Below are positions 3,053-20,990 of a stretch of 64,000 nt of DNA, in pieces. Numbering within the stretch: the first letter of the stretch is position 1; each line of letters begins with the position of its first letter. A model generated the notes under the pieces. It did no database searches. It was not told where the DNA came from and saw nothing but the letters and a program-made list of their open reading frames with translations. The DNA lies in the NCBI GenBank assembly GCA_049974845.1, contig JBNGCP010000002.1, positions 47,127 to 111,126 on the forward strand, written 5' to 3'. This DNA comes from Anaerolineae bacterium. GTDB taxonomy: Bacteria; Chloroflexota; Anaerolineae; B4-G1; SLSP01. Made by a program: the position numbers and the translations under genes.

Positions 3053-3061
3053 CCCCCCGCG

Positions 3062-5433: not shown

Positions 5434-6513
5434 TCAGCGAGTCATCGGGAGCGTGACCGGCATCGCCGTCCGGCCCGATTCATACGCCGCAACGAAGACC
5501 TCCAGATCCTTGCGTCCCTCCTCAGCCGGCACGTCGGGCTCACGTCCTTCAAGCACAGCCTCGGCAAAGCGGTCGAGATAGGTGGCGTAGGCCAGCTGGT
5601 TCGCCTCTTGCGGAAACTCAAGTTGCACCCACTCACCGGCATCAAGGCCATCCCCTCCGACCTCACTGTAGACGAGAAGATCGTTGTCTGCAAACACGAT
5701 CTGCCCCTGCGTGCCGAAGATCCGGTTCCCAGCGGCCCGCGTGCCGCGGATACCGCTCTTCGCAGCACCCGGCGCGCAGGAACCGGCCATAAAGGTCCCT
5801 AAGGCCCCGTTCTCGTAGCGAAGCGTCACCGCGATAAAGTCCTCGACCTCCACCGGCGTTCGATACGTATCGTACTCCGCAAAGACACGCGTGACCTCCA
5901 GGCCGGTAATGTGACGCAGCCGGTAGATATCATAGATGTAGTTCATGATGAGGATGCCACCGCCGGACTCGTCCTTCGACTTGCGCCACTCCGTCTTGAC
6001 GCGCCCCGTGTACCCGCCGCTCCAGTAGCTCTCTGGCTTATTAGCGGCGCCGAAGACCTGCGTTGCCATCACCTCGCCGATGACGCCCTGCTCCACCAGG
6101 GCCTTTGCCTTGGCGGTCGCTGGCTGATAGCGCACACTCCCCTCTTTTGAGGAGCAGAGTACGCCTGCGCGCTGACACGCCTCGATAAGTGCGTCGGCAT
6201 CCACCAGCGTCGTGGCCATCGGCTTCTCAACGATGACGTGCTTGCCGGCTTCCGCGGCACGAATGCCCAACGGGGCGTGGAGGTTGTGAGGGGTCGAGAT
6301 GATCACGGCATCCACCTCGGGATGTTCCAGCACATCCTCCAGCGAGGTCGAGCAGGGGATTCCAAAACGCGCCTCAAAAGTCGTCGCCATCTCGGTGACC
6401 GGGTCCATCCCTGCGACCATCGTCGCCTTCGACGTCCGTTGAAAGAGTTCACCGGTGGATGTGTACGCAATCTCTCCAAGACCAATCAGACCAAAACGAA
6501 GCTTACGAGTCAC
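5434..6513 (-). CDS. Gfo/Idh/MocA family NAD(P)-dependent oxidoreductase
   Basis: Rossmann motif FGLIGLGEIA, EKP catalytic-region motif AGKHVIVEKPMA. GTG start at 6513 with AAGGAG 7 nt upstream. The longer ORF-track start at 6555 has no RBS. Confidence 0.8.
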   Translation of the reverse strand: MTRKLRFGLIGLGEIAYTSTGELFQRTSKATMVAGMDPVTEMATTFEARFGIPCSTSLEDVLEHPEVDAVIISTPHNLHAPLGIRAAEAGKHVIVEKPMATTLVDADALIEACQRAGVLCSSKEGSVRYQPATAKAKALVEQGVIGEVMATQVFGAANKPESYWSGGYTGRVKTEWRKSKDESGGGILIMNYIYDIYRLRHITGLEVTRVFAEYDTYRTPVEVEDFIAVTLRYENGALGTFMAGSCAPGAAKSGIRGTRAAGNRIFGTQGQIVFADNDLLVYSEVGGDGLDAGEWVQLEFPQEANQLAYATYLDRFAEAVLEGREPDVPAEEGRKDLEVFVAAYESGRTAMPVTLPMTR

Positions 6514-6585
6514 GGATACGCTCCTTGACGGGAATAGTGATGAAATCGAACACACAGTTGGCGAGCACTGTCATAGCGCGCCACG

Positions 6586-6672: not shown

Positions 6673-7476
6673 CTACCTCGCGCCGCAGGCCTGCAGCGAC
6701 GCTTGCATATGCCCGCGAGACTCCGCCGCGATCACACAGCACTGCTCGAGCGTATAGCCCATGCGCTTGGTGCCGATGATCTCGAGGTTGAGCGGCCCTT
6801 CATAGCCATGCTCGTGGAGGACACGCACATAACCGACCAGATCGATGTCGCCCCGCCCATTGGCCTGCATCGCCGGCTCGCCGGGTCGGGGTCCGCGGCC
6901 CTTACAATCGCGAATATGCACGTGCTTGACCCGCGAGATCACAGCCTCGATGGCCTCGACGGGATTCTCTCCGGCACGATAGATGTGGGAGGGATCCATG
7001 TCAATGCCAAAGGCCGACGAGGTCACCGCCTCCATCATACGCAGCGTGCTCTGCGTATCGTGGATCGCAGCACCAACGTGAGCCTTCACGCAGAGCGTCA
7101 CACCATACGACTCGGCCATCTCCGCCAAGGCGGATAGCGAGTCCGCAGTCTGCTGGAAGCTCTCCTCATCGTCCGCTTTACCACCTGGCCCGCAGTTCAC
7201 GATGGGGATTCCGAGCTCCGCCGCGGCCCTAAACGCCATCTTCATACGCTCCGGATCCTGCGATGGCTGCTCCATCGCCAGGAGCTCCAGGCCGTAGGTC
7301 GCTGACAGCCCCTTGATCTCGGGCACCAGCTCCTCCCACCGCTCCAGGACCAGGTGCTCACTCATACCGGGAATCGCCGACAGCTCGATGCCGTCGTAGC
7401 CCGCCATCGCTGTGTACTTGAAGGCCGTTTCCATATCGAAGGCGCCAAAGAGCACCGAATTCGCGCCAAGTCTCAT
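6673..7476 (-). CDS. Sugar phosphate isomerase/epimerase (xylose isomerase-like TIM barrel)
   Basis: AP-endonuclease-2/xylose-isomerase-like pattern across about 267 aa (GYDGIEL, HVHIRD-type metal-site motifs). Confidence 0.7.
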   Translation of the reverse strand: MRLGANSVLFGAFDMETAFKYTAMAGYDGIELSAIPGMSEHLVLERWEELVPEIKGLSATYGLELLAMEQPSQDPERMKMAFRAAAELGIPIVNCGPGGKADDEESFQQTADSLSALAEMAESYGVTLCVKAHVGAAIHDTQSTLRMMEAVTSSAFGIDMDPSHIYRAGENPVEAIEAVISRVKHVHIRDCKGRGPRPGEPAMQANGRGDIDLVGYVRVLHEHGYEGPLNLEIIGTKRMGYTLEQCCVIAAESRGHMQASLQACGAR

Positions 7477-7509: not shown

Positions 7510-8559
7510 CTACAGTGGAAACGCGACCCGCCGGCCCTCACGAGCCGATTGGTATGCCCCCAACACCATCTCCACAGAGACGCGACCGTCCTCGGCCGTC
7601 ACCGGCGGAGGCGTATCATTCTTTATGCAGTCGACAAAAGACCGAGGCACCCCCGCGATGCGTTCTCCATGCCGAGCAGGGATGGGGATCCCAAGATCCT
7701 CCCAGCCTTCTCCTCCGCGCCGGAACAGCTTTAGCGCCGCAGCGTCCGGCGGCGCCAGATGTGTCGAGACAGCATCGTCGTAATTCTGAATCAACACGCC
7801 CTGATCGCCGTAGATCTCGGTGGTATTCTCACCGGCCAACGTGACCGAGGAGTTGACCAAGACGACCATCGCACCGCTGGCGTAGCGGTAGATAGCCACC
7901 CCGGTATCGTCTGGGGCGATATCGGTGATCGTGTTGTCAATCTCCGCCATCACACTGACCGGGCGCCCCATCACCCAATGGATGAAGTCTGTAGCGTGGG
8001 AGGCGTCGTCCATCCACATGCCCATGTTTTTCTCGGGATCAATATGCCAACTGGTAAGGCCGTTGACGAAGCTGTCGCTGAAGAGCACGGGGATGCAGTG
8101 GCGACGGCGCATCCAGGCGATGTTGCCGAGAACTCCTTCCTCGACCAGGGCCTTGATCTTCTGATTCGACGAATCGTGGCGCATCTGATAGGCCATCACG
8201 AACTTGACGCCAGCTTTGTCGGCGGCCTCCGCCATTCGATCGCAGTCCTCAAGCGTCAAGGCCATCGGCTTCTGACAGAGGATGTCCTTGCCTGCCTCCG
8301 CTGCAACAATCGCCATCTCCGGATGCCGATTCGTCTCGCACGTGACGATGACGCCCTGGATCTCAGGGTCATCGAGCACGTCCTCCAAATGCGGCGTGTA
8401 GCGCATCCCGTAGTTCTCAGCGGCTTCCTTGCCGCGCTCTTCGTTATCGTCCCAACAGGAGACCAGCTTCACGTCGTCATACGTGAGCATACGCTGGCAG
8501 TAGGCCTGGGAATGGCCGTGGGCAAAGCTGATCACACCAATACCGATAGGAACCGTCAT
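7510..8559 (-). CDS. Gfo/Idh/MocA family oxidoreductase
   Basis: N-terminal Rossmann IGIGVISFAHGH, AGKDILCQKPMA motif. Confidence 0.8.
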   Translation of the reverse strand: MTVPIGIGVISFAHGHSQAYCQRMLTYDDVKLVSCWDDNEERGKEAAENYGMRYTPHLEDVLDDPEIQGVIVTCETNRHPEMAIVAAEAGKDILCQKPMALTLEDCDRMAEAADKAGVKFVMAYQMRHDSSNQKIKALVEEGVLGNIAWMRRRHCIPVLFSDSFVNGLTSWHIDPEKNMGMWMDDASHATDFIHWVMGRPVSVMAEIDNTITDIAPDDTGVAIYRYASGAMVVLVNSSVTLAGENTTEIYGDQGVLIQNYDDAVSTHLAPPDAAALKLFRRGGEGWEDLGIPIPARHGERIAGVPRSFVDCIKNDTPPPVTAEDGRVSVEMVLGAYQSAREGRRVAFPL

Positions 8560-8563: not shown

Positions 8564-9559
8564 TCACCTCACGTAGACGATAGAGTTAGTTTCGAGCGAT
8601 TCGATGGCCGCCTGTAGCACTTTCTGCGCAGCGAGGCCATCGGCCCCGGATGCGTCGATCTCCTCAGGGGCCACGCCGTCGCTCACCTGCTGCAGGAAGG
8701 TATGGATGCGGTTACGGAATGTATCTACGAAGTCACGGTGACCGCCGAAGACCGGATTCGTGTACTGGAGCTTCTCGAAGTCACCAGCCGGATAGAGCGT
8801 CACCTGTCGCCACATGTCCTCGAGGACGAAGCGGCCCTTGGTGCCCGCGACCTCACAGCGCTCCATAGGATGGCCACGCTCGATGTCGTAGGAGCCGCTG
8901 AGCGTGCCGACAGCGCCGTTCGCGAACTTCATGTTGAAGGAGGCCGTCGACCAGATCTGGCGCCCGGGCGCCTTCGTCGCAAAGCACTGCACCGCTTCGA
9001 CATCACCGCAGAAATGCCGCATCACGTCGACCGTATGCGGATGTAGCGACTTGATCATATAGTACGGCGAGCTCTCGTTCGGGTTCATGATCCACATCGC
9101 CATATTGACGAAGAGCAGATCGCCAAGGCGTCCCTCGCCCTGCCAGCGCTTGGCGATTTGTGCAGCCTCGGTGAAGCGGTGGTTCAGGTCAATACCGTAG
9201 CAGAGGCCCGTTTCTTTCGCCTTCGCGACCATTTCCTCGGCCTTCGGTATCTCATTGCAGATCGGCTTCTCGCCCAGAACGTGACAACCCGCTTCGAAGG
9301 CTTGCAGGGTCGGTTCGTAGTGATCACTACCATTCTCGAAACCCGCCGTTGCAATGCTGCAGACATCCGGCGAGAGAGCGTCGAGCATCTCCTGAGCATC
9401 GTAGAACGCCGGCACGCCGAACCGCGCGGCGGCGGCATCAGCCCGCTCTTTGATGATATCGCAAACCCCAACCAGATCCGCCAGCGGGTCCTCCTGATGA
9501 ATCATGGCATGGCGGTTCCCAATCGGTCCCATCCCAATCACAGCTACACGTAATGTCAT
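8564..9559 (-). CDS. Gfo/Idh/MocA family oxidoreductase
   Basis: VAVIGMGPIGNRHA Rossmann motif, GCHVLGEKPI motif. 4-nt gap from the upstream gene. Confidence 0.8.
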   Translation of the reverse strand: MTLRVAVIGMGPIGNRHAMIHQEDPLADLVGVCDIIKERADAAAARFGVPAFYDAQEMLDALSPDVCSIATAGFENGSDHYEPTLQAFEAGCHVLGEKPICNEIPKAEEMVAKAKETGLCYGIDLNHRFTEAAQIAKRWQGEGRLGDLLFVNMAMWIMNPNESSPYYMIKSLHPHTVDVMRHFCGDVEAVQCFATKAPGRQIWSTASFNMKFANGAVGTLSGSYDIERGHPMERCEVAGTKGRFVLEDMWRQVTLYPAGDFEKLQYTNPVFGGHRDFVDTFRNRIHTFLQQVSDGVAPEEIDASGADGLAAQKVLQAAIESLETNSIVYVR

Positions 9560-9645: not shown

Positions 9646-10413
9646 CTATAACGACACAGCTTCGCACTGCTGACGTTTCGGCGCTTCCTCAGGGATCTCA
9701 TACCCATAGCGCGCCATCGCCGGTGCGAGAAAGTGGAAGTAGTTTGTGCCATCGTCCTGCTTCCAGCGGTCAACGGCCTCGGCGCGCACCGGTATCCGGG
9801 CCAACTCGATCCCGAGAAAGTCCTCAAGCTCGACCAGCGTCTCGTCCCGACGAAGGACGAAATCCTCGAAGCGTACCTCCAGGTAGTGCGCGGGCTTCGG
9901 CGTGGAGGCCACAAGGTCGTATTGGTACTTCCAGGAGATGGCACGGCGGCGGCGCTCATCGTCGGTCGGCGGATACTCCACGCCGAAGTCACGAAGGTCG
10001 TCGGTCAGATGACGCCCGAGGATGCAATCGCGGGGATTTCGGACCCAGTAGATGTATTTGGCCTCAGGAAAGAGCCGGATGATCCACGGCAGAACCAACG
10101 TGGTCTCCGGAAGCTTCCATCCTTTGTGCTCCGAAGAGCTTTTTAGAACGCTCCTGAGATAGCCATAGAGCAGGTCGGTGAACGCCTCGGGAATCTCCGC
10201 CTCTCGTGCCGCATCCCAGTTCCACTGTAGGTCACCTTCCCAGCTCACGTAGGAGCCGAAGACGCGACAGGCTTCATACATGTCGTGGGCCGGCACGAGA
10301 TCGCCGGACCGGTTGAGCAGCCCCCCCATATAGACGCCGCTGGCATAGAGAGTATGGGATATCGCGCGCGTCCCTGAATGCCCGCGACCGACAACGATAA
10401 TGATCGACGACAT
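9646..10413 (-). CDS. PAPS-dependent sulfotransferase family protein
   Basis: Start MSSIIIVVGRGHSGT (5'-phosphosulfate-binding loop, PKSGTT-like) preceded by AAGGAG. RNPRD 3'-phosphate-binding-like motif. The ORF-track N-terminal extension (Arg/Cys-rich) has no RBS and looks spurious. Confidence 0.7.
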   Translation of the reverse strand: MSSIIIVVGRGHSGTRAISHTLYASGVYMGGLLNRSGDLVPAHDMYEACRVFGSYVSWEGDLQWNWDAAREAEIPEAFTDLLYGYLRSVLKSSSEHKGWKLPETTLVLPWIIRLFPEAKYIYWVRNPRDCILGRHLTDDLRDFGVEYPPTDDERRRRAISWKYQYDLVASTPKPAHYLEVRFEDFVLRRDETLVELEDFLGIELARIPVRAEAVDRWKQDDGTNYFHFLAPAMARYGYEIPEEAPKRQQCEAVSL

Positions 10414-10501: not shown

Positions 10502-11626
10502 TCAGGCCAGCAGGACTGGATCCCCGTGCACCGTCGGCAGCGGATGCGGCTGCACCAACGCGCCACCGTTTTCGTAGGACTGCATCGCCGCCCACGTGTA
10601 TTCGAGGGTCGCTAACGCATCTCGCCCAGAGGCCCGCAGCTTGTCCTTGGCAACACCGTTGGTCACGTCCTCCAGGAACGCGTGAATCCGGCGCGGGAAC
10701 GTCTGGCTGAAGTCCGTGATGCCAGATTCGGTGACAACCGGCGTCGGCGAGGCGCCGAGCACCAGGTTCTCAGGCTGTGCCGCTCCCTCCGTCCCGGGGG
10801 TCGGGAAGAACGTCACCTTCTCGATACAGTTCTCAATGCAGAAGGTGCCGCGGGTACCGGCGACCTCGACGCTCCACCACCCACCCAGGCCAAACGTCGC
10901 ATCGCCCCGCTGGCTCAGTAGGTATCCCACCGCGCCGTTTTGGAACCGCATGTGGATGCTGTTGATCGACAACATCAGGTCGCCTGCCGCTTTCCGATAG
11001 CTCGGTCGGTCGAAGAAGGCCTGGATATGGGTCACATCGCCACAGAAATAGCGCATAATGCTGAAAGGGTGCGCGAGGAACGCCTTGACGTGGAAGTAGG
11101 GGAATCCCTTGGAGCGTGGCGCGCTGGAATAGCTATACGTCCGCTCGCCGCCGGGGAAACCCATCTTATGGAGACAGTAGACGAGCTCGCCGATCTGCCC
11201 GTTGTCCATATACTCGCGCGCCTTCTCCGCCGGGGGTGTGAAGTAGTGGTTGAGATTGCATCCCAGGTAGAGATCCTCCTCGAAGGCCTTGCGCACCATC
11301 TGGCGCGCCTCGCCGATGTCGTTGGAGATTGGCTTCTCTACCAAAACATGCTTTCCGGCCTCGAGCGCCTGCATCACCGGCTCAAAATGCCAGCTCCCAT
11401 TCTCGTAGCCGCCGGTCGTGACGTCGACCACGTCCAGCTCCTCATTCCGCAGCATATCCTCGAGGTCGTAGTAGGCCGGAACGCCGTACTTCTCGGCCGC
11501 GTCATCGGCGCGCTCCTTGACGACGTCACAGACCGCCACCAACTTCGACAAAGGATCCTGGATATGCGCCTGAGCATGCGTATTCCCGATGCCTCGCATG
11601 CCCACTAATCCAACTCTAAGAGCCAT
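10502..11626 (-). CDS. Gfo/Idh/MocA family oxidoreductase
   Basis: Real start MALRVGLVGMRGIGNTHA at 11626 with GGAGGA upstream. The 185-aa ORF-track N-terminal extension is Arg/Ser-rich low-complexity and spurious. GKHVLVEKPI motif. Confidence 0.8.
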   Translation of the reverse strand: MALRVGLVGMRGIGNTHAQAHIQDPLSKLVAVCDVVKERADDAAEKYGVPAYYDLEDMLRNEELDVVDVTTGGYENGSWHFEPVMQALEAGKHVLVEKPISNDIGEARQMVRKAFEEDLYLGCNLNHYFTPPAEKAREYMDNGQIGELVYCLHKMGFPGGERTYSYSSAPRSKGFPYFHVKAFLAHPFSIMRYFCGDVTHIQAFFDRPSYRKAAGDLMLSINSIHMRFQNGAVGYLLSQRGDATFGLGGWWSVEVAGTRGTFCIENCIEKVTFFPTPGTEGAAQPENLVLGASPTPVVTESGITDFSQTFPRRIHAFLEDVTNGVAKDKLRASGRDALATLEYTWAAMQSYENGGALVQPHPLPTVHGDPVLLA

Positions 11627-11702
11627 TTTGTCCTCCGTGTTTTCGCTTGATGAGCTTGCTGCCTCGCTACTGTGACCTGTCCCAACCTTCAATCGTCCGT
11701 CG

Positions 11703-13181
11703 TCAATCGTCCGATCTTGCCTCCGCCTCGGTCGGAGCGTCAGCATCCTCCACCGCCCCAGCCTCTTCCACTGACGCTTCTTCATCTTCGTCCCCGGCCT
11801 GAAGCTTGGCTGCCTGTCGCGCACTCCCAATATGCAGTGTGTCGTAGGCCTGCTGCGACGTCTTAAAGGCCCCAACGCCCTCGTGACCGTGCCAATCCCC
11901 TTGGTGGTAGATCGGGTTTGGAAGTCCCGTCTCCTCCTCGCGCTTGGCGATCCACCGCTCCATCCGGCCCCGCAGCAGATCGACGACACCGGGCTCGCTC
12001 TCGGCAAGATTGTGGTCCTCGTGGGGATCCGCGACGAGGTCGTAAAGCTCGATCGGAGGCTTGAAATGAAAATCAGGCTCCAGGGCCACGATGAGCTTCC
12101 ACTGCGGCGTCCGCCATCCGTGCTTGCGCATCCACGTGCACTCGGTGAGGTAGACCTCGCTCTTGTGCGAGACCACTTCACCGTTAGCCATCGGCATCAG
12201 GCTCTTGCCATCGAAATCGATGCCAGGGTCGAGATCTAGCAACTCCATAATCGTGGGCACGAGGTCGTATTGCTGCGCGTACCCCGTCACCCTCTTGCCC
12301 GCCGGTACCTTGCCGGGATAGCGGATGATCAGGGGCACGTGGAGGGTGACGTCATAGATCCCATGGTGGTCGAAGTAGCAGTCGTGATCATACAGGGTCT
12401 CACCGTGGTCCGACGTGACGATAACGAGGGTCTCGTCAAGGATGCCGTGGGCCTCCAACGCTGTGAAGATCGATTGTATTGCTGCATCCATGTAGGCGAC
12501 GGCCCCGTCATACTGGGCCACAACGTAATCCTTGTCCGTGATCCCCTCCGGCATCCACGAAGCGAAGTAGTCCCGGAATGGCTTGAACGCCATCACGGGC
12601 TCCATCGACGTGTTCTCGGGATCGCATTCGTTGCCGTGGTAGAAGATGCGTTCGTACGGCTCCGGTGGCAGGTAGGGCGAGTGCGGGTCCATATGACGCA
12701 GGAACAACAGGAACGGATCGCCCTCCGCCACCAAGCGGTCTAGCTCCGGAATGGCGACCTCATTGAGGTTCTGGGCCTTAGGGGCGCGACCACCTTCCTC
12801 CCCTCCCCATCCACTAAAATGAAGGTAGGTGTCAAAGCCCCGCGAGGCGGGATTTCCCTCGAACCCAACAGAGGTACTCGTGTACCCGAACTCCCTCAAG
12901 ATCTCCGCCAGCGTCTTGACCTCTGAGCGCATCGGACCCTGGTGGCGCAACGCCACGACCTGTGTGCTGAAGACGTCCATCCCGGTCAACATATTGGCGT
13001 AGCCACTGGTCGTCGGTATGTGCGGGCTGTAGTAGCGCTCGAAAAGCGTACCCTCCTGAGCAAAGCGATCGAGGTGCGGTGTCGTCAATCGGTCGTACCC
13101 ATAGCAGCTCATGTGGTCGGCAAGCAGTGAGTCAATGCCTACCAGCACGATGTTGGGAAGCTTCTCCTTATTCGTCGGCAT
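11703..13181 (-). CDS. Sulfatase-like hydrolase/transferase (alkaline-phosphatase superfamily) lacking the canonical formylglycine motif
   Basis: Sulfatase fold (NIVLVGIDSLLADHMSCYG, SDHGE). The C/S-x-P-x-R position reads IPTTSGYANMLTG, so Thr replaces Cys/Ser and Tyr replaces Arg. Acidic C-terminal tail. ATG at 13181 with GGAGGA upstream. Confidence 0.7.
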   Translation of the reverse strand: MPTNKEKLPNIVLVGIDSLLADHMSCYGYDRLTTPHLDRFAQEGTLFERYYSPHIPTTSGYANMLTGMDVFSTQVVALRHQGPMRSEVKTLAEILREFGYTSTSVGFEGNPASRGFDTYLHFSGWGGEEGGRAPKAQNLNEVAIPELDRLVAEGDPFLLFLRHMDPHSPYLPPEPYERIFYHGNECDPENTSMEPVMAFKPFRDYFASWMPEGITDKDYVVAQYDGAVAYMDAAIQSIFTALEAHGILDETLVIVTSDHGETLYDHDCYFDHHGIYDVTLHVPLIIRYPGKVPAGKRVTGYAQQYDLVPTIMELLDLDPGIDFDGKSLMPMANGEVVSHKSEVYLTECTWMRKHGWRTPQWKLIVALEPDFHFKPPIELYDLVADPHEDHNLAESEPGVVDLLRGRMERWIAKREEETGLPNPIYHQGDWHGHEGVGAFKTSQQAYDTLHIGSARQAAKLQAGDEDEEASVEEAGAVEDADAPTEAEARSDD

Positions 13182-13412
13182 CCTTGTCCTCCTAATTGTG
13201 TGAGCTATCCCGGCGAGCAAAAACGAAATCTGATGTAGCGAAATTCAAAGGAACGGGCCTGGACGGCCAGCATGTGGAGCAACACAGCGTTGGTCTTCGT
13301 GGTCATTCTGGTGTTGAGTCTATCATAAATTTAGGACAATCGCCTTAAGAAAAGTGACGAATACTATAACAGAATTGCCAACTCACCGTCTATGCGCTAT
13401 AGTGAATAGACG

Positions 13413-14309
13413 ATGACCGAACAACGCGTGCTCAACGACTCATATTTCTCGGAGCCAGATCTTCCCCTGGCGATGCAGCATACCCATCAGCCGGACCTCG
13501 TCCATCATATGCACACGTTCATCGAGCTCGTCATGGTGGTGGAAGGCAGTGGCACCCACGTCTTTGAGTCCGAGCGCTATCCTATCACGGTTGGTGACGT
13601 CTTCGTCATCCCACCCTATACGCCCCACGGCTATGAAAACACCAGGGATCTCGCCATCTACAACATCCTCTTCAAGGAGGAGATGCTCGCGAGGTACCAG
13701 AGCGAGTTGGAGCTGATCCCCAGCTTCCACGGGCTAATCTATCTGGAGCCCTACTACCGGTCGGTCCGCGACTTCGCCGGACGCCTGACCCTCACGCCGG
13801 AGCAGATCGTGCAGGCCACTTCGCTTATCACACGGCTCGAGCACGAGAGCAAGCATCGCCTCGAAGGCCGGAGGATCATGGTCGAGACCCTCTTTGTCGA
13901 GCTGCTCCTCTTCTACTGCCGCAGATTCTCGGAGAACACGGGATCCTCAACACGGGTCATGCCGGTGGCGCGAGCGATTGGGTACATGAACCAGCGCTTC
14001 GCCGAGCCCATCTGCCTCGACGACCTCGTCAAGGTCTCGGGGCTCTCCAAGCGCAGTCTGATCCGGCACTTCAAGAACACCACCGGCTTCACGCCGATCC
14101 ATTACCTGCAAAAGGTGAGGGTGGCCAAAGCGTGTGCGATGCTCGAGCAGGACGACCAGTCGGTCACCCGCACGGCCCTCGACGCCGGCTTCAACGATCC
14201 CTCCTACTTTTCCACGGTCTTCCGAAGGCATACAGGCGTCACGCCCAGCCAGTACGCGAGGACGCGCGGCACTGAAGGCTTCGATGGCTCAGCAGGCAGT
14301 AGGAAGTAG
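13413..14309 (+). CDS. AraC family transcriptional regulator (cupin sensor domain plus C-terminal HTH)
   Basis: C-terminal AraC HTH pattern (LSKRSLIRHFKNTTGFTPIHYLQKVRVAKA...DAGFNDPSYFSTVFRRHTGVTPSQY). Divergent from the sulfatase/oxidoreductase locus. Confidence 0.85.
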   Translation: MTEQRVLNDSYFSEPDLPLAMQHTHQPDLVHHMHTFIELVMVVEGSGTHVFESERYPITVGDVFVIPPYTPHGYENTRDLAIYNILFKEEMLARYQSELELIPSFHGLIYLEPYYRSVRDFAGRLTLTPEQIVQATSLITRLEHESKHRLEGRRIMVETLFVELLLFYCRRFSENTGSSTRVMPVARAIGYMNQRFAEPICLDDLVKVSGLSKRSLIRHFKNTTGFTPIHYLQKVRVAKACAMLEQDDQSVTRTALDAGFNDPSYFSTVFRRHTGVTPSQYARTRGTEGFDGSAGSRK

Positions 14310-14373: not shown

Positions 14374-14910
14374 CTACTCCTGCTGATGGCTGAAGGCCGT
14401 GAACCCCAACTCCTTGTACCAGTCGACGTCATTGCCGGTGGCGTAGCAATAGATGCGGTCCTTCTGGGGCCCGCCCAAGAGCCGGTAGACGGGCTGCTCC
14501 AGCAGCTTGCCCTTGAGGTCCCATAGCGCCAGATCGATGGCGCTGATCGCATAGGAGGCCAGACCTGTCGATCCGTAAGGCTTGGTCATCCGGAACATCA
14601 TATCGGCGAGCTTATCCGTCGCCAGGCAGTCCTCACCCACCAGCTGCGACGCCAGGTGCTCGACAACCGGCGTGACCACCTCGGCGGAGCTCAGCGTGCC
14701 CAGCCCCCACGTGCCGTCCTCAGCCACGACCTGAACCCAGGCACCTTCCCACCGCGGTAGCCACAGACTGCGGTGCCGCTTCACCTTGGCGTAGCGTGAC
14801 ATGGGGTTGGCGACCTCGGCCCCCGCCGCCCAGCGGGGCCGTCGAGGCATCGTGCGGCTCTCCTTTGACGGTAGGTCAACTCGAACCGTACGGATGTCCG
14901 TGATCTTCAT
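14374..14910 (-). pseudogene. Truncated enolase-superfamily (mandelate racemase/muconate lactonizing enzyme) gene: N-terminal capping domain only
   Basis: MKITDIRTVRV...AISAIDLALWDLKGKLLEQPVYRLLGG is homologous to the N-termini of the intact enolases at 25514 and 39813. It ends after about 179 aa, against about 380-410 aa for intact members. The 3' end abuts the araC stop across a short microrepeat. Confidence 0.55.
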
Positions 14911-14929
14911 AGATACCCTCCCCTCATCA

Positions 14930-15076
14930 CTATTCGGTTGAGCGCGCTTCTGCAATCATCGCCTGCCGCGCCCGCAGCTTGCGTTCGACCTGACGGCGAC
15001 GCCAGGCAATGGAAACCGCCAGGCCCAGCGGGACAGTACAGAAGATCGCGTAGGCCAGGCCAAGATGGATCAGCAT
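14930..15076 (-). CDS. ccmD: Haem exporter protein CcmD (small single-TM protein)
   Basis: Not in the ORF track. A 48-codon ORF, ATG 2 nt after the ccmC stop with GGAGGAGG upstream. MLIHLGLAYAIFCTVPLGLAVSIAWRRRQVERKLRARQ: one TM helix followed by a basic tail, typical of CcmD. Confidence 0.6.
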   Translation of the reverse strand: MLIHLGLAYAIFCTVPLGLAVSIAWRRRQVERKLRARQAMIAEARSTE

Positions 15077-15078
15077 CG

Positions 15079-15777
15079 CTACACCTCCTCCCGCGTTAAG
15101 ACGTCATCCAGTGCCGCCAGTCGATCCCGAGCACGCTCCAAGGCGATGCGTTGCCGGAGCAGGGCCCCGTAGACGAGGGTAAAGGCCGCGATTGCAGCCA
15201 GGAGTGTGTGGAGCATGCGGGGCGTCAAGGCCATCTCTCCGCCTGCCAGAATCTGCGGATGTATCGTGCGCCACCACCGGATCGCAAACCAAGAGAGCGG
15301 GACGGTGACGAAAGCGAGCACACCGTAGACGGCAGCAAAGCGCGCGACCCGTTCCCCGTGCACCGTCGACGCGCGAAGCATCACATAAGCCACGTAGAGC
15401 AACCACTGCACCGCGGAGATCGTCAATCGGGGCTCCCATGTCCAGTACGTGCCCCAGACAGGCTTGGCCCACAAAGAACCTGTGACAACGGCCATCGTGA
15501 TAAAGGCAAGCCCGATCTCTGCGGAGGAAAGACTGAGGATGTCCCACTGCCGGCGTCCCTGCACAAGGTAGAGCACGCCTGCGACGAAAGTCACGAAGAA
15601 CGCAAAGAAACCGATCCACGCGGAGGCGACGTGGAAGTAGAAGATCCGCTGTATCTCCCCCATCGTCGCCTCGCGCGGCGCATAGGCAAAGACCATCACC
15701 AGAGCCACAGCAAACGCAGCGACACTGACAATGCTCAATAACCGGCCTGCCAACTGCTCTGGTCGCCTGCTATCCAT
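15079..15777 (-). CDS. ccmC: Haem exporter protein CcmC
   Basis: WWD domain WGTYWTWEPRLT, conserved His-containing loops, about 6 TM helices. GGGAGG RBS. Confidence 0.9.
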   Translation of the reverse strand: MDSRRPEQLAGRLLSIVSVAAFAVALVMVFAYAPREATMGEIQRIFYFHVASAWIGFFAFFVTFVAGVLYLVQGRRQWDILSLSSAEIGLAFITMAVVTGSLWAKPVWGTYWTWEPRLTISAVQWLLYVAYVMLRASTVHGERVARFAAVYGVLAFVTVPLSWFAIRWWRTIHPQILAGGEMALTPRMLHTLLAAIAAFTLVYGALLRQRIALERARDRLAALDDVLTREEV

Positions 15778-15856
15778 AGAACCTCCCAGCGCTCACGCTG
15801 CTCACGCAACGCGCGCTCAACCACCGCTCCGGGAATCCGCATCGATCATGACTTCC

Positions 15857-16528
15857 CTAGACCTCCACGACATATTCGAAGGTGAGCACCGAGACAGCCG
15901 TCATGACCAAATCGTAGACCACCAGAATCCGTATCCAGGCGCCCATCTCCCCCAATGGCAGCCCCTCCAGCAGCCCCGCCGTGGCTCTGGCAGCCGCGAT
16001 CAGCAGGGGAACCACGAGCGGCAGCAGGAGAATCGGCAACATCACCTCTCTGGCCCGCGTGTTGACAGCGATCGCAGCGAGCAGTGTACCGACCACAGCA
16101 TAACCAATCGTCCCCAGGACCAGCACCCAGATAATTCCTGCCCTGATCAGGCTGATGTTGAAGAAAACCGTTCCCAGCGGCAGGAGGACGATTTCCACAA
16201 GGAACATCAGAACCAGGTTGCCCAGCGCTTTACCAAAGAAGATCACGATGCGATCCGCCGCCGCGAGCAACAACCCGGACATGCCTCCACTGTGGTGCTC
16301 TCGGGCCATCGACCGGCTGAGGCCAAGCGTCCCGGAGAAGGCAATCGTCGTCCAAAGAACGCCCGGTGCTGCAGCCTTTCCAGCGGCCCCACGAAGATCG
16401 AGCGCAAAACTGAAGCTGAGGATCGCGATGATCGCGAAGACGAACATAGCGCTCAGGATCTCCCGGGTGTGGAGTTCAGCAGCTAGGTCCTTGTGCACGA
16501 TCGCGCCGATCTGACGGAGGCTATCCAT
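15857..16528 (-). CDS. ccmB: Haem exporter permease CcmB
   Basis: CcmB-like 6-TM permease, 223 aa from the internal Met (MDSLRQIGAIVHKDL). The longer ORF-track start would overlap ccmA by about 90 nt. Confidence 0.8.
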   Translation of the reverse strand: MDSLRQIGAIVHKDLAAELHTREILSAMFVFAIIAILSFSFALDLRGAAGKAAAPGVLWTTIAFSGTLGLSRSMAREHHSGGMSGLLLAAADRIVIFFGKALGNLVLMFLVEIVLLPLGTVFFNISLIRAGIIWVLVLGTIGYAVVGTLLAAIAVNTRAREVMLPILLLPLVVPLLIAAARATAGLLEGLPLGEMGAWIRILVVYDLVMTAVSVLTFEYVVEV

Positions 16529-17285
16529 CGTGTCCCCGCTCAGCGAAGCCACGCGAGGAAAGGGGCTCGCGCAGCAGCTCCCGATACCGGGCAGGAAAGG
16601 CCGCGGCATCTCCCAGCGACTCGTCGGTGATGATCCGACCCCTGCGCAAAACGATCACCCGCTCGGCCAGTCGCCCCTCGGCAGCCGGTTGATGGGTGGT
16701 CAACAGCAGCGTGCAGCCTGCGTCCACCAGCTCTGCGAGCAACTCAGTAAGGGTATCGACCGCGAGCGGATCCAACCCTGTGTAAGGCTCGTCTAGAAGC
16801 AGCAGCCTCGGCTTATGGATCAGCGCCCGCACGACGGCGAGGCGCTGCTGCATCCCGCGCGAAAACGTCCGAACCAGATCGTGGCGACGTCCCTCCAGCC
16901 CGACGCGGGTCAACAGCCCATCAATCCCGGCATGTTCCGGCGCCAACCCATACATCGTGGCGTAGAACCGCAGATTCTGCCACGCGGTGAGATCGTCATA
17001 GAGGAGCGTCTCGTGCGAGACGAAGCCGATCAACGAACGCACCTGCCCTCCCGCCACCCCAGGGTCCAAGCCGGAGATCCGCACGGTCCCGGCAGTGGGG
17101 CGGCTCAGCGTCGCCAGAATGCGCAGCAGCGTAGTCTTACCGGCGCCATTGGGACCGACGAGCATCACGCGCTCGCCCTCCTCGATAGCGAGGTCGACCC
17201 CGGCAAGCGCGACGTGAGGGCCAAAACGCTTCTCCAGCCCGTGGACCCGGATCACACGTGGCGGCCCTCCGCCCGACCCATCCAC
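16521..17285 (-). CDS. ccmA: Haem exporter ATP-binding protein CcmA (ABC ATPase)
   Basis: Walker A GPNGAGKTT, ABC signature FSRGMQQRL, Walker B LLLLDEP. Confidence 0.9.
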   Translation of the reverse strand: MDGSGGGPPRVIRVHGLEKRFGPHVALAGVDLAIEEGERVMLVGPNGAGKTTLLRILATLSRPTAGTVRISGLDPGVAGGQVRSLIGFVSHETLLYDDLTAWQNLRFYATMYGLAPEHAGIDGLLTRVGLEGRRHDLVRTFSRGMQQRLAVVRALIHKPRLLLLDEPYTGLDPLAVDTLTELLAELVDAGCTLLLTTHQPAAEGRLAERVIVLRRGRIITDESLGDAAAFPARYRELLREPLSSRGFAERGHDG

Positions 17286-18248
17286 TTACTCGCGACCACA
17301 CGACACTCCGCACTCATCCCAGCCCCCGCCGCCAACGTAATCCTGCAGCCGAGCTTTGAGCGCCTGCCGCTCCTCCAGATACGCGGCCTCTGACACCTCA
17401 CCCGCAGCATACCGCACGTCCAATTCCGCCATCGCCGTCACCGCCCGTCTTGCGCCCTCCGGCACGCGAGGAAGCGGCGGCGACCGCCAGAGCATCGCCG
17501 CAAGCCCTGCCCCGGCCAACACGGCGCCGGTACCCACAGCGATCTCGATCCCCACGGGAGGGCCTGCCGATGCTGCCACGGGACGCGCCTCCATTCCCTC
17601 GGCAACGGCACCAGAAGCGGGCGATCCGGGCACGAGCTGAAAGGCGACCGCCTCGCCGGCGGCAAGCGGATCGCCCCTGTAGGCGACCGCCGTCTGCCCC
17701 CCTACCTCCATCGGACCCATCGACGTCAGCCCCGGCCCCTCAAGCTGCCAGGCCTCGCCGACCAACAGGATCACGATGGAATGCACCGCCAGCGGAACGG
17801 TGCGGGAGATGGTTTCACGCGGCACCAGAGGCAGATCGTAGAGGAACCGCGTCTCCACCGTCCCGACCCCAGGCGAGATCGGTCGCGTGTCCGCAATAGA
17901 GTTCGCGCCAAGCCGGTATCGGTCGGGGGCCTCCGCGCTCTCGTCGACCCTGACGTTGGTAGCCTCCCTAGGCAGCGAGAAGACGACGGTCACGCCCTCC
18001 CCCGGGCCCTCTGACAGGCCAGTGTAGACCGTATCCCCGGTGTTGCCCAAAAGATAGTACTCAGATATCGTCAGGGTTTCCTCAGCCGGAAAGAGAAAGA
18101 GGTGCAACTGATCGATCACCGGGCCGCCATCGGGTTGCGGCTGGGCGAGGGTCGGCTGTCCCGTGCGTGCGCCGAGAAACCCAACGATCAACAGCACCAG
18201 ACCGGCCCATCGCAGACGGTGGAGACGAGAGGACCTATCCCGCTGCAT
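17286..18248 (-). CDS. Hypothetical membrane-anchored protein (signal peptide/anchor, extracytoplasmic domain, C-terminal TM and SHOCT-like tail) embedded in the ccm operon
   Basis: Hydrophobic N-terminus, Gly/Ala-rich TM near the C-terminus, then ELDVRYAAGEVSEAAYLEERQALKARL (SHOCT-like). Its stop abuts the ccmA start. Confidence 0.5.
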   Translation of the reverse strand: MQRDRSSRLHRLRWAGLVLLIVGFLGARTGQPTLAQPQPDGGPVIDQLHLFLFPAEETLTISEYYLLGNTGDTVYTGLSEGPGEGVTVVFSLPREATNVRVDESAEAPDRYRLGANSIADTRPISPGVGTVETRFLYDLPLVPRETISRTVPLAVHSIVILLVGEAWQLEGPGLTSMGPMEVGGQTAVAYRGDPLAAGEAVAFQLVPGSPASGAVAEGMEARPVAASAGPPVGIEIAVGTGAVLAGAGLAAMLWRSPPLPRVPEGARRAVTAMAELDVRYAAGEVSEAAYLEERQALKARLQDYVGGGGWDECGVSCGRE

Positions 18249-18254
18249 CCCGAC

Positions 18255-18515
18255 CTAGTCCTCCACCAGCCGAGCCCCGCAGTGGGGACAGTATCGGTGC
18301 TCGGGTTTGACCGGCTGGCCACATTGGTGGCAGAAGCCAGCCGAATCGACAGCGGCCGCGCGTCCTTCGCCCTGCTGCAGCGCACGTCGCTCGCGCGCGA
18401 CCCACGCCTCGATCAGAGCGTCGGCGTCCGTCGTTCCGCGACGAAAGGGCAACGCTACGTAGGCCGTCAGCACGATCAGCGTCCCCACCCCAATCAGCAG
18501 CGCCCCAATAGTCAT
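18255..18515 (-). CDS. Small membrane protein with C-terminal zinc-ribbon (CxxC...CPHC), embedded in the ccm operon
   Basis: N-terminal TM helix. FCHQCGQ...YCPHCGARL four-Cys ribbon. Confidence 0.5.
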   Translation of the reverse strand: MTIGALLIGVGTLIVLTAYVALPFRRGTTDADALIEAWVARERRALQQGEGRAAAVDSAGFCHQCGQPVKPEHRYCPHCGARLVED

Positions 18516-18520
18516 CGTCT

Positions 18521-20989
18521 TCAGTCTCCCAGGAGTGAGTCCAACTGCGCTGTCAGCTCCACCTGTGACACCGCGCCCACGTACACTGCCGCCACCTGTC
18601 CCTGAGCATCGATCACGAAGGTCTCCGGAACCTTGGTGACGCCATAGGCCTGGGCCGCAAGGTCGGAGGCATCAAGTCCGATGGGATAGCTCAATCCATA
18701 GGCCGACGCGATCTCCTCGACCGCCGCCCTGTCCGAATCGTAGGCAACACCCACGAACACGACACCCGCGCCCTGGTACGCTTCCCAGGATGCCTGCAGA
18801 TCAGGTAGCTCGTCCTTGCAGGTGGGGCACCAGGGAGCCCAGAAGTTGAGCACGACGACTTGTCCTCGCAAGTCGCTCAGCGCCAGCGCGTCCCCGCTCA
18901 GCGAAGAGAGCCGAAACTCGGGCGCCGCGTGACCGACGTGAGGGCGACCCAACGCCTTCACAGCCGTCCCGTGCCGCGCGCCCCACATCGCCCAGGCGCC
19001 CCCCGCCAGCAAGCCCACGATGACCATCGCAGCCACCGCGTTCCACGCGCCGGCAAGCCCCCTGGGCCAGAGCGCCAGCGCGCCGCCTGCCAGGAACACG
19101 AGCCCGCCCAGCCAGAGGAAATTCGCGAGGGCGTTGATCAGGATCCTGACGGTGATCGTCGTGCCGTCGCCACTCCAACCAGCCAGGATCACATAAAGAT
19201 CCTCACGCAGGGCAGGGCGCAGCGCCGGCACCGAGAACGTCTGCTCGTAGTTCTGATAGCGGTTGACCCGTGGCTCCAGCGTGACCAGATACTCATCCTC
19301 ACCATAGACACTGAGGCTGGCCCACGTGCTGAGATGGTCGCCGACCATCTCTTGCGAAAGCAGATCGAACACGAGCGTGTACTCTCCGATCTCGATCGGC
19401 TCGCCGGACGCCATCACCATCTCCTGTTCAAAGGGATAGAGGCGTGTCCCAATGACACCCACGGCCATGAATATCACGCCGAGATGGACGAGATATCCAC
19501 CATACTTGCGCCGCTGCGTCCGCAGCAGGTCCCAGAGCGCGTTCAGAGGCGCGAGATCGGTGCGTCGGCTTCGTTGTGCGACGCCCTCTCCGTACTCAAT
19601 CAGGACGGTCGTCGCGGATAGACCCACCAGCCCAAAGGCGATTAGCGACACCGGTTTGTCAAATCCAGCCACGAGCGCCGCCCCGACCGCCACGAGCGCA
19701 CCGAGGGCAATCAGCCACGCCCGGCGCTTCAGGCGACGCACCGTTGCAGCTGCACGACCCAGGAGCGGGCACACGCCAATGAGCAGGATCAGAAGGGCAA
19801 ACTGCGGCCCGGTGACGCGGTCAAACCACGCCGGACCAGCCTCAAACTGCTGCCCCAACGCCAGATCTGTGATCGTCGGGAGCACGCTGCCCACAAAGAC
19901 GGACAGCGTCAACGTCATAAATACGAGCAACGTGAGGAAGAAGGCGCCATCGCGGGACAGGAGCGGCGGCTCTGAAGATGCAGAGCTGAGGTCAGCGCTC
20001 CGCCACAGGATCAGACCCACGCTGACACCGAGGGATGCCAGAATACCGGCGAGATAATAGCCGCCAAGGTTTGACACCGCGTAAGCGTGGACCGACTGAA
20101 TGGCGCCGCTGCGGGTGGCGAAGGTGCCAAAGAGCACCAGCACGAAGGAGAGAGTCACGAGGACGTAGTTCCAAACCCGGAAGCCGCGTCGTTCCTCCTG
20201 CATGACGGCGCCGTGCAGCAACGCCGTCGTCGTAAGCCAGGGCATCAACCCAGCGTTCTCCACCGGATCCCATCCCCAGTAGCCTCCCCATCCCAGGACG
20301 TCATAGGCCCACCGCATGCCCAGCAACAACCCGAGGCTAAGACCGATCCACGCGACCAAGGTCCAGGGATGGACCACACGGGTCCAGAAGCGATCATTCT
20401 TGGTGATCAGCGCAGCGAGCGCAAAGGCGAACGGCACCGACAGGCCGACATACCCGACGTACATCGCCGGCGGATGGAAGATCATGCCCGGGTGACGCAG
20501 CAGCGGATTGAGGCCCTGACCGTCGGTGAGGGGCCGCGGAAGCTGGGTAAAGGGGTTGGAAAGCCACAGCATCGCCCCGACAAAAAGGGCCCCGATCAGC
20601 CCCAAGACGACCGTCGCCCACGGGATTAGAGGGGCGGCGCGCTCATCACGGATGCGGATGGCGAGCGCCGTGAAGACCGCCTGGAAGAAGCACCATAGCA
20701 ACAGAGAGCCCTCTTGACCGGCCCAGATCGCCGACAGCTTCAAGTAGATTGGCAGGGCTTGCGAGGAATGCTGGGCAACGTAGCGAATGCCGTAGTCTCC
20801 GCTGAGGAAGGCCTCTGTCAAAGCAATAAGGGCCAACCCCAGCAGCGCCGCTGCGCCGTACAGAGCGTTACGGGCGCTCTGCCACCACCTAACGTCTCGC
20901 CGGTAGATGCTGATGGCGCTCGCCAGAGCGCCATAGAGGGTCGCGGCCCACGCCAGGCCACTGAAGACCGTCCCGAGGTCCGCTAACAC
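18521..20989 (-). CDS. ccmF: Cytochrome c-type biogenesis protein CcmF fused to a C-terminal TlpA/CcmG(DsbE)-like thioredoxin domain
   Basis: CcmF WWD motif WGGYWGWDPVENAGLMPW over a multi-TM body of about 650 aa. C-terminal roughly 170 aa carry VVLNFWAPWCPTCKDELP (thioredoxin CxxC). The chosen GTG start at 20989 sits 1 nt after the ccmE stop with GAGGA upstream. The alternative ATG at 21055 overlaps ccmE by 64 nt. Confidence 0.85.
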   Translation of the reverse strand: MLADLGTVFSGLAWAATLYGALASAISIYRRDVRWWQSARNALYGAAALLGLALIALTEAFLSGDYGIRYVAQHSSQALPIYLKLSAIWAGQEGSLLLWCFFQAVFTALAIRIRDERAAPLIPWATVVLGLIGALFVGAMLWLSNPFTQLPRPLTDGQGLNPLLRHPGMIFHPPAMYVGYVGLSVPFAFALAALITKNDRFWTRVVHPWTLVAWIGLSLGLLLGMRWAYDVLGWGGYWGWDPVENAGLMPWLTTTALLHGAVMQEERRGFRVWNYVLVTLSFVLVLFGTFATRSGAIQSVHAYAVSNLGGYYLAGILASLGVSVGLILWRSADLSSASSEPPLLSRDGAFFLTLLVFMTLTLSVFVGSVLPTITDLALGQQFEAGPAWFDRVTGPQFALLILLIGVCPLLGRAAATVRRLKRRAWLIALGALVAVGAALVAGFDKPVSLIAFGLVGLSATTVLIEYGEGVAQRSRRTDLAPLNALWDLLRTQRRKYGGYLVHLGVIFMAVGVIGTRLYPFEQEMVMASGEPIEIGEYTLVFDLLSQEMVGDHLSTWASLSVYGEDEYLVTLEPRVNRYQNYEQTFSVPALRPALREDLYVILAGWSGDGTTITVRILINALANFLWLGGLVFLAGGALALWPRGLAGAWNAVAAMVIVGLLAGGAWAMWGARHGTAVKALGRPHVGHAAPEFRLSSLSGDALALSDLRGQVVVLNFWAPWCPTCKDELPDLQASWEAYQGAGVVFVGVAYDSDRAAVEEIASAYGLSYPIGLDASDLAAQAYGVTKVPETFVIDAQGQVAAVYVGAVSQVELTAQLDSLLGD

Positions 20990-20990
20990 G

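Follow-up and report, generated by a model that had tools for sequence, protein, structure and literature searches.

What chemistry does a sulfatase-fold enzyme perform when the residue that should become formylglycine (FGly) is a threonine? This question is raised by a gene, hereafter ThrSulf, in a 64,000-nucleotide stretch of DNA from an Anaerolineae bacterium (Chloroflexota; GenBank assembly GCA_049974845.1, contig JBNGCP010000002.1, positions 47,127 to 111,126; the whole stretch is referred to as the window). ThrSulf is best described as a tightly conserved subfamily, with an operon of its own, of a large and unnamed clade of threonine-bearing proteins (the Thr clade) on the sulfatase scaffold. 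Its members are almost certainly incapable of being FGly sulfatases. As judged from sequence, ThrSulf probably belongs to the active members of the alkaline-phosphatase superfamily, working in the cytoplasm with a metal and using Thr57 as nucleophile to cleave a phosphate ester in a small anionic substrate of the sugar or cyclitol type.

The ThrSulf protein and its active site

The gene starts at an ATG at position 13181 with TAGGAGGA just 5′ of it; this start suffices, and a longer TTG-initiated open reading frame (ORF) from the mechanical list is superfluous. Pfam assigns PF00884 (Sulfatase; 7e-49, residues 9–316) and SGSH_C (3e-16) to the product, and the database record of the identical protein reads ‘sulfatase family protein [Anaerolineae bacterium]’. 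None of the NCBIfam models reached its cut-off (arylsulfatase, 157 bits against 481). Neither a signal peptide nor a transmembrane segment was found in ThrSulf (maximum 19-residue hydropathy 1.24), and the protein is soluble, as the preliminary description of this DNA had stated, and cytoplasmic. Its main elements are as follows (pLDDT, predicted local distance difference test).

11703–13181, minus: ThrSulf gene, encoding a Thr-type sulfatase-fold enzyme of 492 residues (ORF and translation; Shine–Dalgarno sequence and ATG; PF00884 and SGSH_C)
13128–13133, minus: Asp17-Ser18; Asp17 is the predicted N-terminal metal ligand, counterpart of the first Asp in the sulfatase DD/DQ motif
12981–13019, minus: nucleophile motif I55-PTTSGYANMLT-G67 (IPTTSGYANMLTG), from alignments, conservation and model secondary structure
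13011–13013, minus: Thr57, at the Cys/FGly position of sulfatases
12999–13001, minus: Tyr61, at the signature-Arg position of sulfatases
12681–12695, minus: H163-M-D165-P-H167; His167 is the counterpart of the sulfatase PH-x-P His
12399–12410, minus: D258-H259-G-E261, the DHG metal-binding motif of the alkaline-phosphatase superfamily, invariant
12363–12371, minus: D271-H272-H273; His272 invariant, His273 at least 90% conserved
12096–12143, minus: basic hairpin E347-CTWMRKHGWRTPQW-K362 in the C-terminal subdomain, invariant in the tight family
11826–11909, minus: family-specific C-terminal motif YHQGDWHGHEGVGAFKTSQQAYDTLHIG, kept in 120 close homologues; moderate pLDDT
11706–11795, minus: acidic low-complexity tail, residues 463–492, 47% Asp/Glu; not conserved

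The register of the active site was taken from HMMER alignments with sulfatases in the PDB, BLASTP against the two bona fide sulfatases in the window (named after their motifs, CCPYR and CAPTR) and hhalign against Escherichia coli EptA, all of which agree. Thr57 falls on the Cys/FGly position, Ser59 on the signature Pro and Tyr61 on the signature Arg. The nucleophile is the first Thr of the pair; position 58 is variable among distant relatives. A regular expression for C/S-x-P/A-x-R run over the whole ThrSulf protein returned no match, and an alignment shift concealing a C-x-P-x-R motif, a possibility that the preliminary description had itself raised, is ruled out by this result together with the shared register. 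Its reading of a sulfatase fold with Thr and Tyr at these two positions, and its choice of the two canonical sulfatases as references, therefore hold.

The remaining residues of the centre were compared in the same alignments and in a set of 148 close and distant clade members (31–83% identity). Asp17, Thr57, His167, Asp258, His259, Gly260, Glu261 and His272 are invariant in this set, and Asp165, His273, Arg114, Lys353, Arg357 and Lys362 are at least 90% conserved. Asp17 pairs with the ‘ADQ’ of an in-window sulfatase (BLASTP). H163-M-D165-P-H167 aligns with ‘PHDPY’ and ‘PHSPY’ of the in-window sulfatases, both of which lack an equivalent of Asp165; this residue is particular to the clade and a candidate ligand of a second metal. 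D258-H259-G-E261 aligns with SDHGES of EptA and SDHGD of an in-window sulfatase.

In FGly sulfatases, the residues that bind sulfate or the FGly hydrate are Arg55, Lys113, His115 and Lys375 (PAS numbering). BLASTP places His272 of ThrSulf opposite the Lys of ‘TKHC’, that is, the sulfate-binding Lys is replaced, and shows the GKWH Lys/His pair of the in-window sulfatases to be deleted. The His272/His273 pair occupies the position of the ‘YLHG’ His of EptA, with which hhalign pairs His273. Residues specific to FGly and sulfate chemistry have been lost, the His and Asp residues typical of Thr phosphotransferases have been gained, and the metal ligands have been kept. The comparison with LtaS- and EptA-like phosphoryl transfer made in the preliminary description is borne out by these replacements and by the alignment of Thr57 with the EptA nucleophile.

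Two further conserved elements lie in the C-terminal subdomain. The E347–K362 hairpin, which contains three of the basic residues conserved across the clade (Lys353, Arg357 and Lys362), is a candidate anion- or substrate-binding element, and the YHQGDWHGHEGVGAFKTSQQAYDTLHIG motif could possibly serve oligomerization. The acidic tail noted in the preliminary description is present, and it is unconserved: among 96 ThrSulf homologues the median tail length is 4 residues, and only 19 tails reach at least 20 residues. It is also the lowest-confidence part of the structural model (block means of about 55 and 44–46; pLDDT below 50 only at residues 484–492), and is lineage-specific and probably irrelevant.

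Conservation of ThrSulf and the wider Thr clade

ThrSulf is not an isolated oddity but part of a very large PF00884 Thr clade, which the preliminary description had overlooked. Each of the best 120 homologues shares 72% identity or more with it, although they come from Anaerolineae, Armatimonadota, Chthonomonadaceae and KSB1, and identity across phyla is 70–86% (Chloroflexota, Poribacteria, Armatimonadota, KSB1, Gemmatimonadota, Latescibacterota, Zixibacteria and Deinococcota). When one genome per species was scanned, ThrSulf turned up in at least 591 species-level genomes, and the matches listed include Chloroflexota classes, Chthonomonas calidirosea and Trueperaceae. Of the 120 homologues, 119 contain the motif [IV]-P-T-[TS]-[SP]-[GA]-Y-x-x-M-[LF]-T-G. 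All 84 orthologous genes encode Thr57, by four synonymous codons (ACA 29, ACC 26, ACG 25, ACT 4), which indicates purifying selection on the amino acid rather than chance or sequencing error.

These data bear directly on the idea, offered in the preliminary description, that the protein is an inactive paralogue. Against a catalytically dead sulfatase kept for binding or scaffolding, the metal-binding and nucleophile positions of ThrSulf are invariant in the 148 sequences, identity is high across phyla and Thr57 is maintained at the codon level. We regard a dead paralogue as the least probable of all the explanations weighed here and do not retain the earlier suggestion.

An exhaustive HMMER search of 1.84 billion representative sequences returned 11,117 proteins below 1e-30. 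Among the best 150 of these, 115 representatives have at least 400 residues; in their tabulated active-site columns, nearly all aligned domains (30–66% identity, truncated fragments apart) show Thr at the nucleophile position. Clade-wide features are T-x-P-[SAG]-[HFY]-x-[ST]-x-x-[TS]-G, ‘DT’ at the first metal ligand, DHGEH and D-H-H. ThrSulf itself has T-x-[PS]-x-[HFY]...[TS]G, DHGEH and D-H-H on a sulfatase plus SGSH_C scaffold, as the definition of the clade demands, together with the invariant residues of the clade and its FY-G-..-DP and E-TW-.K...RT..WKLI motifs. It differs from the rest of the clade in having Ser59 instead of Pro, ‘DS’ instead of ‘DT’ and a unique C-terminal HQGDWHGHEG...YDTLHIG, and in its unusually strong conservation between phyla and its own operon.

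The 240 homologues inspected all bear generic names (sulfatase, arylsulfatase A-like enzyme, sulfatase-like hydrolase/transferase, DUF4976). In the literature on the operon or on Thr-type sulfatase-fold enzymes, our sole find was a remark in the SulfAtlas paper that 30 of the 59 PF00884 seed sequences have Thr and cannot be presumed to be sulfatases (PMC5066984); no paper describing the family or the cluster was found. Thr in PF00884 is thus already known in general, and the clade of ThrSulf is uncharacterized.

In five Caldilineaceae loci (L045, L064, L073, L075 and L078, several from sponge-associated metagenome-assembled genomes; about 11300–12900), a tandem second ThrSulf copy of 63–65% identity lies directly downstream of the first, followed by an orthologue of the TIM-barrel gene described below and a distant PhyH-like gene; the two second copies with a clean N terminus carry the same IPTTSAY motif (crude ORF calls). 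Distant clade members lie near sugar ABC transporter genes, Gfo/Idh/MocA oxidoreductase genes and genes similar to uroporphyrinogen decarboxylase (URO-D), and in L005, L087 and L089 multiple URO-D paralogues surround the Thr-clade genes, again with sugar ABC transporter and Gfo/Idh/MocA oxidoreductase genes, which makes the association a recurrent one.

Fold and comparison with characterized families

An AlphaFold2 model built from the 148 sequences has a pLDDT of 90.6 and a predicted TM-score (pTM) of 0.90, and Thr57 begins a helix spanning residues 57–66. It replaced an earlier run on 29 close homologues, which gave a pLDDT of 69 and a Foldseek match at the level of the fold only. Fold comparison figures were highest for FGly sulfatases and phosphonate monoester hydrolases (PMHs) (30–38), followed by PbgA, VP1736, EptC, LtaP, EptA, MCR-1 and LtaS (25–31), nucleotide pyrophosphatase/phosphodiesterase (NPP) and the phosphatase PafA (22–25), phosphopentomutase and iPGM (about 19.7) and phosphonoacetate hydrolase PhnA (16.5). 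All top matches in the sequence and fold searches of the PDB were FGly enzymes, and no solved structure was found within the Thr clade. EfAS, described as a ‘manganese-dependent arylsulfatase’, is a Cys/FGly enzyme and was rejected as a characterized member of the clade (PMC12421950).

With S1 sulfatases and PMHs (7EBP, 4UPH, 4UPK, 2VQR, 7OZ8; SulfAtlas S1/S1_0), ThrSulf shares the PF00884 plus SGSH_C architecture, the N-terminal Asp, the DHG metal motif and the PH-x-P His. The two-domain fold and the N-terminal Asp and D-[NH]-G ligands of the S1 family are thus present, and its signature motif and sulfate-binding residues are not: ThrSulf has Thr57 for the Cys- or Ser-derived FGly, Tyr61 for the FGly-stabilizing Arg and His272 for Lys, lacks the GKWH pair and has the additional conserved Asp165. 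FGly maturation of such a protein is impossible.

With EptA/MCR-1, EptC, LtaS/LtaP and PbgA, ThrSulf has in common a Thr nucleophile at a helix N terminus, a metal site made of an acidic residue and an Asp-His pair, and two more His. By contrast, it lacks their N-terminal membrane domain (the catalytic domain begins at residue 9) and the LtaS-type T-x-N-x-E, and it has a large sulfatase-type C-terminal subdomain. The hhalign match to E. coli EptA covers 266 columns and places Thr57 on the nucleophile Thr (GTAT), with Asp17 one position off the EptA Glu. The region of His167 is unaligned, so that its likeness to the ‘SHGP’ His of EptA and MCR-1 is by motif similarity only (PH-sPY versus SHGPtY). 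We take Asp17, Thr57, His167, Asp258, His259 and His272 (or His273) to be the counterparts of E246, T285, H395, D465, H466 and H478 of MCR-1; the alignment backs this for Thr57, DHGE and His272/His273 only. ThrSulf scores 28–40 bits against NCBIfam models of the EptA/LtaS type, far below their cut-offs of 400–970, and E-values for phosphotransferase models are 1e-7 to 1e-10, against 5e-46 for the arylsulfatase model. The ThrSulf family is thus a sulfatase/PMH body with a catalytic centre like that of Thr phosphotransferases.

Such a centre could also transfer phosphate rather than hydrolyse an ester, with phospho-Thr57 handing its group back to another hydroxyl of the same sugar or on to an acceptor, the way of phosphopentomutase, iPGM and LtaS/EptA. 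Ser/Thr members of the superfamily that reside in the cytoplasm tend to be mutases, and ThrSulf is cytoplasmic with catalytic residues that match those of the transferases. Its similarity to mutases is far below that to hydrolases, and it has neither a mutase-type cap domain nor a membrane domain that binds a lipid donor, which makes a mutase or transferase an improbable assignment.

NPP and PafA (PF01663) have a Thr nucleophile and a DHG motif, as does ThrSulf. The PF01663 match is local (residues 224–264, 35.5 bits), in contrast to the full-length match to PF00884, the second domain is different and only about 250 residues superpose. The Zn2-type ligands (Asp, Thr, Asp, His) are present in ThrSulf, and the candidate Zn1 ligands Asp165, His167 and His272 are conserved; NPP has D-x-x-x-H and a distal His at Zn1, whereas the candidate second-metal ligands of ThrSulf are spaced D-x-H. 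The NPP motif is TFPNH, and distant Thr-clade members carry a similar T-x-P-x-H.

The ThrSulf operon

ThrSulf heads a co-directional string of genes with gaps of at most 120 nucleotides, made up of the following.

10502–11626, minus: GFO1, Gfo/Idh/MocA oxidoreductase, directly downstream of ThrSulf after a 76-nucleotide gap; GGAGGA ribosome-binding site
9646–10413, minus: SULT, sulfotransferase-like protein (Sulfotransfer_3; Pfam), with GHSGTR and RNPRD motifs
8564–9559, minus: GFO2, Gfo/Idh/MocA oxidoreductase; among solved structures, closest to sugar C3 and inositol dehydrogenases
7510–8559, minus: GFO3, Gfo/Idh/MocA oxidoreductase (Pfam)
6673–7476, minus: TIM, xylose-isomerase-like TIM barrel (AP_endonuc_2); orthologues of 67–82% identity accompany ThrSulf
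5434–6555, minus: GFO4, Gfo/Idh/MocA oxidoreductase, in the same string; otherwise in the closest relative only
3962–5365, minus: canonical Cys-type sulfatase CCPYR, in the same string; no signal peptide, cytoplasmic
3062–3856, minus: metallo-beta-lactamase-fold hydrolase, last gene of the string; terminator-like hairpin at 3048–3066
13413–14309, plus: AraC-family regulator, divergent (Pfam); kept here in close Anaerolineae/Thermoflexales relatives
13182–13412, no strand: ThrSulf/AraC intergenic region, with promoter-like hexamers in both directions at 13363–13403 (consensus matches only)

A 559-residue ORF at 10502–12181 (minus) that overlaps the 3′ end of ThrSulf is an artefactual extension of GFO1, whose true start is the ATG at 11626 with the GGAGGA site. 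The AraC orthologues in loci L007 and L009 are 71–72% identical, and no riboswitch or RNA leader matching Rfam was found in the ThrSulf/AraC intergenic region. GFO2 is closest to DgpA and to WlbA-type, inositol and levoglucosan dehydrogenases, and TIM to 3-keto-glucal hydratase, IolE and IolI, all of them weakly similar. Models of UDP-GlcNAc 3-dehydrogenase gave the second-best score for both GFO1 and GFO2. The GHSGTR and RNPRD motifs of SULT are presumably of the type that binds 3′-phosphoadenosine-5′-phosphosulfate (PAPS).

A nucleotide-linked substrate would fit several of these observations. An NPP-like pyrophosphatase or phosphodiesterase would act through a nucleotidyl-Thr intermediate on a nucleotide sugar, on PAPS or adenosine-5′-phosphosulfate (APS), or on 3′-phosphoadenosine-5′-phosphate (PAP), which SULT, as a putative PAPS user, would produce; besides the UDP-GlcNAc 3-dehydrogenase scores, the T-x-P-x-H of the distant relatives, the local PF01663 match and the many conserved basic residues of ThrSulf agree with it. 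The absence of the Zn1 spacing counts against it, as does the finding that genes for nucleotide-sugar biosynthesis are not recurrent among the neighbours, and such an enzyme would be one form of phosphoryl transfer, not a competitor to it. We consider this unlikely, albeit the foremost of the competing readings.

Neighbourhood conservation across genomes

The order ThrSulf–GFO–SULT–GFO–GFO–TIM is repeated in a KSB1 genome, with proteins 68–79% identical to those of the window, and the arrangement ThrSulf–GFO–(SULT)–GFO–(GFO)–TIM is kept from Anaerolineae to KSB1. Neighbours were counted within 8 kb at 43 non-poribacterial loci with sufficient flank. At least one cluster gene was found at 35 of them, a TIM orthologue (at least 60% identity) at 28, a GFO at 27 (directly downstream of ThrSulf at 18) and a SULT orthologue at 16. 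The 26 poribacterial loci contain no cluster gene; there, a PhyH-family dioxygenase gene lies directly upstream and a gene for a PEP_hydrolase-like TIM protein downstream. Unbiased clustering of the neighbours gave the same families at the top ranks (GFO 27 loci, TIM 26, PhyH 24, PEP-hydrolase-like 23). The trio PhyH–ThrSulf–PEP_hydrolase-like (PF09370) occurs in about 23 poribacterial genomes (for example, L041, 9152–12390), and the genes downstream of it are presumably purL/purQ-like.

The conserved partners are thus GFO, TIM and the sulfotransferase-like protein, or PhyH. The preliminary description placed ThrSulf inside a sulfatase cluster. One canonical sulfatase does lie in the same string; at other ThrSulf loci CCPYR has matches of 28–30% identity only, and a sulfatase cluster is rejected as functional context because this neighbour is not conserved, which makes the label misleading. 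Neither a transporter nor a kinase was recurrent among the clustered neighbours; a PfkB gene is nearby at two loci only, and a kinase partner was rejected.

Thr57 or a metal-bound water might instead cleave a sugar sulfate ester, in a route of sulfation and desulfation shared with SULT, making ThrSulf an FGly-independent sulfatase or sulfuryl transferase. The nearest relatives by sequence and by fold are all sulfatases or PMHs, and the cluster includes SULT at 16 of the 43 loci and, in the window, a canonical sulfatase. Yet neither SULT nor the sulfatase is a constant partner, and every residue specific to FGly or sulfate is replaced or deleted. Bimetallo sites with Ser or Thr disfavour sulfate esters by many orders of magnitude, and a sulfo-Ser or sulfo-Thr is a dead end: in the C69S variant of arylsulfatase A, Ser in place of FGly reportedly traps a dead-end sulfo-enzyme. 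A Thr-based sulfatase is disfavoured on account of this site preference and dead-end intermediate, and we give it little credence.

The constant pairing of ThrSulf with an oxidizing enzyme, GFO or (in Poribacteria) PhyH, brings a further possibility into view. By analogy with PhnA, the dehydrogenase or PhyH could first install a carbonyl or hydroxyl beta to a phosphonate, and the Thr/metal site could then cleave the carbon–phosphorus (or carbon–sulfur) bond. The best NCBIfam match of the poribacterial PhyH protein is methylphosphonate hydroxylase, at a very low score of 38.8 bits where the cut-off is 500. The proposal is pure analogy, PhnA is a distant relative, and genes for a phosphonate transporter, PhnW/X/Z or PEP mutase are not recurrent nearby, so that such a hydrolase seems very improbable.

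In two Chthonomonadaceae loci (L003 and L004, 10420–17881), ThrSulf and two GFO genes are followed by genes for a GT2 glycosyltransferase, a hexapeptide acyltransferase, a DegT aminotransferase and PMT_2. This set resembles a nucleotide-sugar pathway to 3-amino sugars, a hint that nucleotide sugars might be substrates of the GFO partners.

A proposed reaction for ThrSulf

To our knowledge, all characterized superfamily members with a Ser or Thr nucleophile perform phosphoryl or phosphonyl transfer, and it is because of this that we infer an attack of Thr57 on a phosphate mono- or diester. In the proposed reaction, a divalent metal held by Asp17, Thr57, Asp258 and His259 would activate the Thr57 hydroxyl at the helix N terminus, and Thr57 would attack the phosphorus to give a covalent phospho-Thr intermediate. 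Contacts to the non-bridging oxygens and help for the leaving group would come from His167 and His272/His273, perhaps joined by Asp165 and a second metal, and the intermediate would be resolved by water or an acceptor. The carbon skeleton of the substrate would be processed by the co-encoded GFO dehydrogenases and TIM through 3-keto-sugar or inosose-type chemistry, with SULT or the PhyH dioxygenase joining the pathway in some lineages. The metal, the choice of phosphoryl over sulfuryl chemistry and the class of substrate are deduced in this scheme from the residues, conservation, fold and synteny that we observe.

Several points weigh against phosphate-ester cleavage. The generic names of the clade members offer no biochemical precedent within the clade, and with no recurrent kinase, phosphate-related gene or transporter, the context gives no independent pointer to a phosphorylated substrate. 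The frequent PAPS-type SULT and the canonical sulfatase in the window point to sulfur-ester chemistry somewhere in the pathway, and it is above all for the recurrent sulfotransferase that the phosphate model fails to account. Overall, sequence and fold are nearer to true sulfatases than to any phosphotransferase. The second metal site (Asp165/His167/His272) is a candidate only, and the EptA match, with its gap at His167, has a probability of just 88%. With these points taken into account, the alternatives rank in falling order as NPP-like enzyme, mutase or transferase, Thr-based sulfatase, PhnA-like hydrolase and dead paralogue, all behind phosphate-ester cleavage by Thr57.

Implications for sulfatase annotation

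Surveys of genomes and metagenomes take PF00884 counts as ‘sulfatases’. The ThrSulf family, in its at least 591 species-level genomes, almost certainly does not consist of FGly sulfatases, and it belongs to a much larger Thr clade; the counts, and ecological conclusions drawn from them, are therefore inflated. The consequences are greatest for Poribacteria, Chloroflexota, Planctomycetes-like and sponge-symbiont genomes, in which sulfatase numbers serve to infer degradation of sulfated glycans. The size and conservation of the family, its systematic mis-annotation as ‘sulfatase’ and its defined operon make it worth pursuing; Thr in PF00884 was known in general, and the proposed mechanism is unsurprising. 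As a sulfatase/PMH scaffold with a site like that of Thr phosphotransferases, the clade offers a natural intermediate for studying switches of nucleophile and specificity in the alkaline-phosphatase superfamily, and the ThrSulf–GFO–SULT–GFO–TIM operon is a testable entry to an undescribed cytoplasmic pathway of sugar modification or catabolism. There is a slim chance that the clade comprises the first FGly-independent sulfatases or sulfuryl-transfer enzymes on a sulfatase scaffold, or oxidation-dependent carbon–phosphorus or carbon–sulfur hydrolases. Either, if true, would give the alkaline-phosphatase superfamily a type of reaction not seen in it before, and many ‘sulfatase’ genes in Chloroflexota, Poribacteria and Armatimonadota would perform undescribed chemistry.

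Other features of the window

The second canonical sulfatase lies apart from the operon.

28260–30002, minus: canonical sulfatase CAPTR, 580 residues, no signal peptide; the second bona fide sulfatase in the window

It adjoins genes for an Fe-alcohol dehydrogenase and an apiosidase-like glycoside hydrolase (28260–32784), which form a separate glycan-related locus. A second, larger Sulfotransfer_3/Sulfotransfer_1 protein of 393 residues is encoded at 23147–24328 (plus). Together with the operon SULT and the two canonical sulfatases, it suggests that this organism actively metabolizes sulfate esters.

Between the AraC gene and the ccm operon, a 193-residue ORF (14374–14955, minus) is apparently the truncated remnant of a mandelate racemase/enolase-superfamily enzyme, with nothing left but the N-terminal domain; intact paralogues lie at 25472–26710 and 38665–39813. 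The ccm operon for cytochrome-c maturation (15079–21055) includes an 844-residue CcmF with a C-terminal AhpC/TSA-thioredoxin domain (18521–21055, minus), and a transaldolase–phosphoglucose isomerase fusion of 925 residues is encoded at 35754–38531 (minus).

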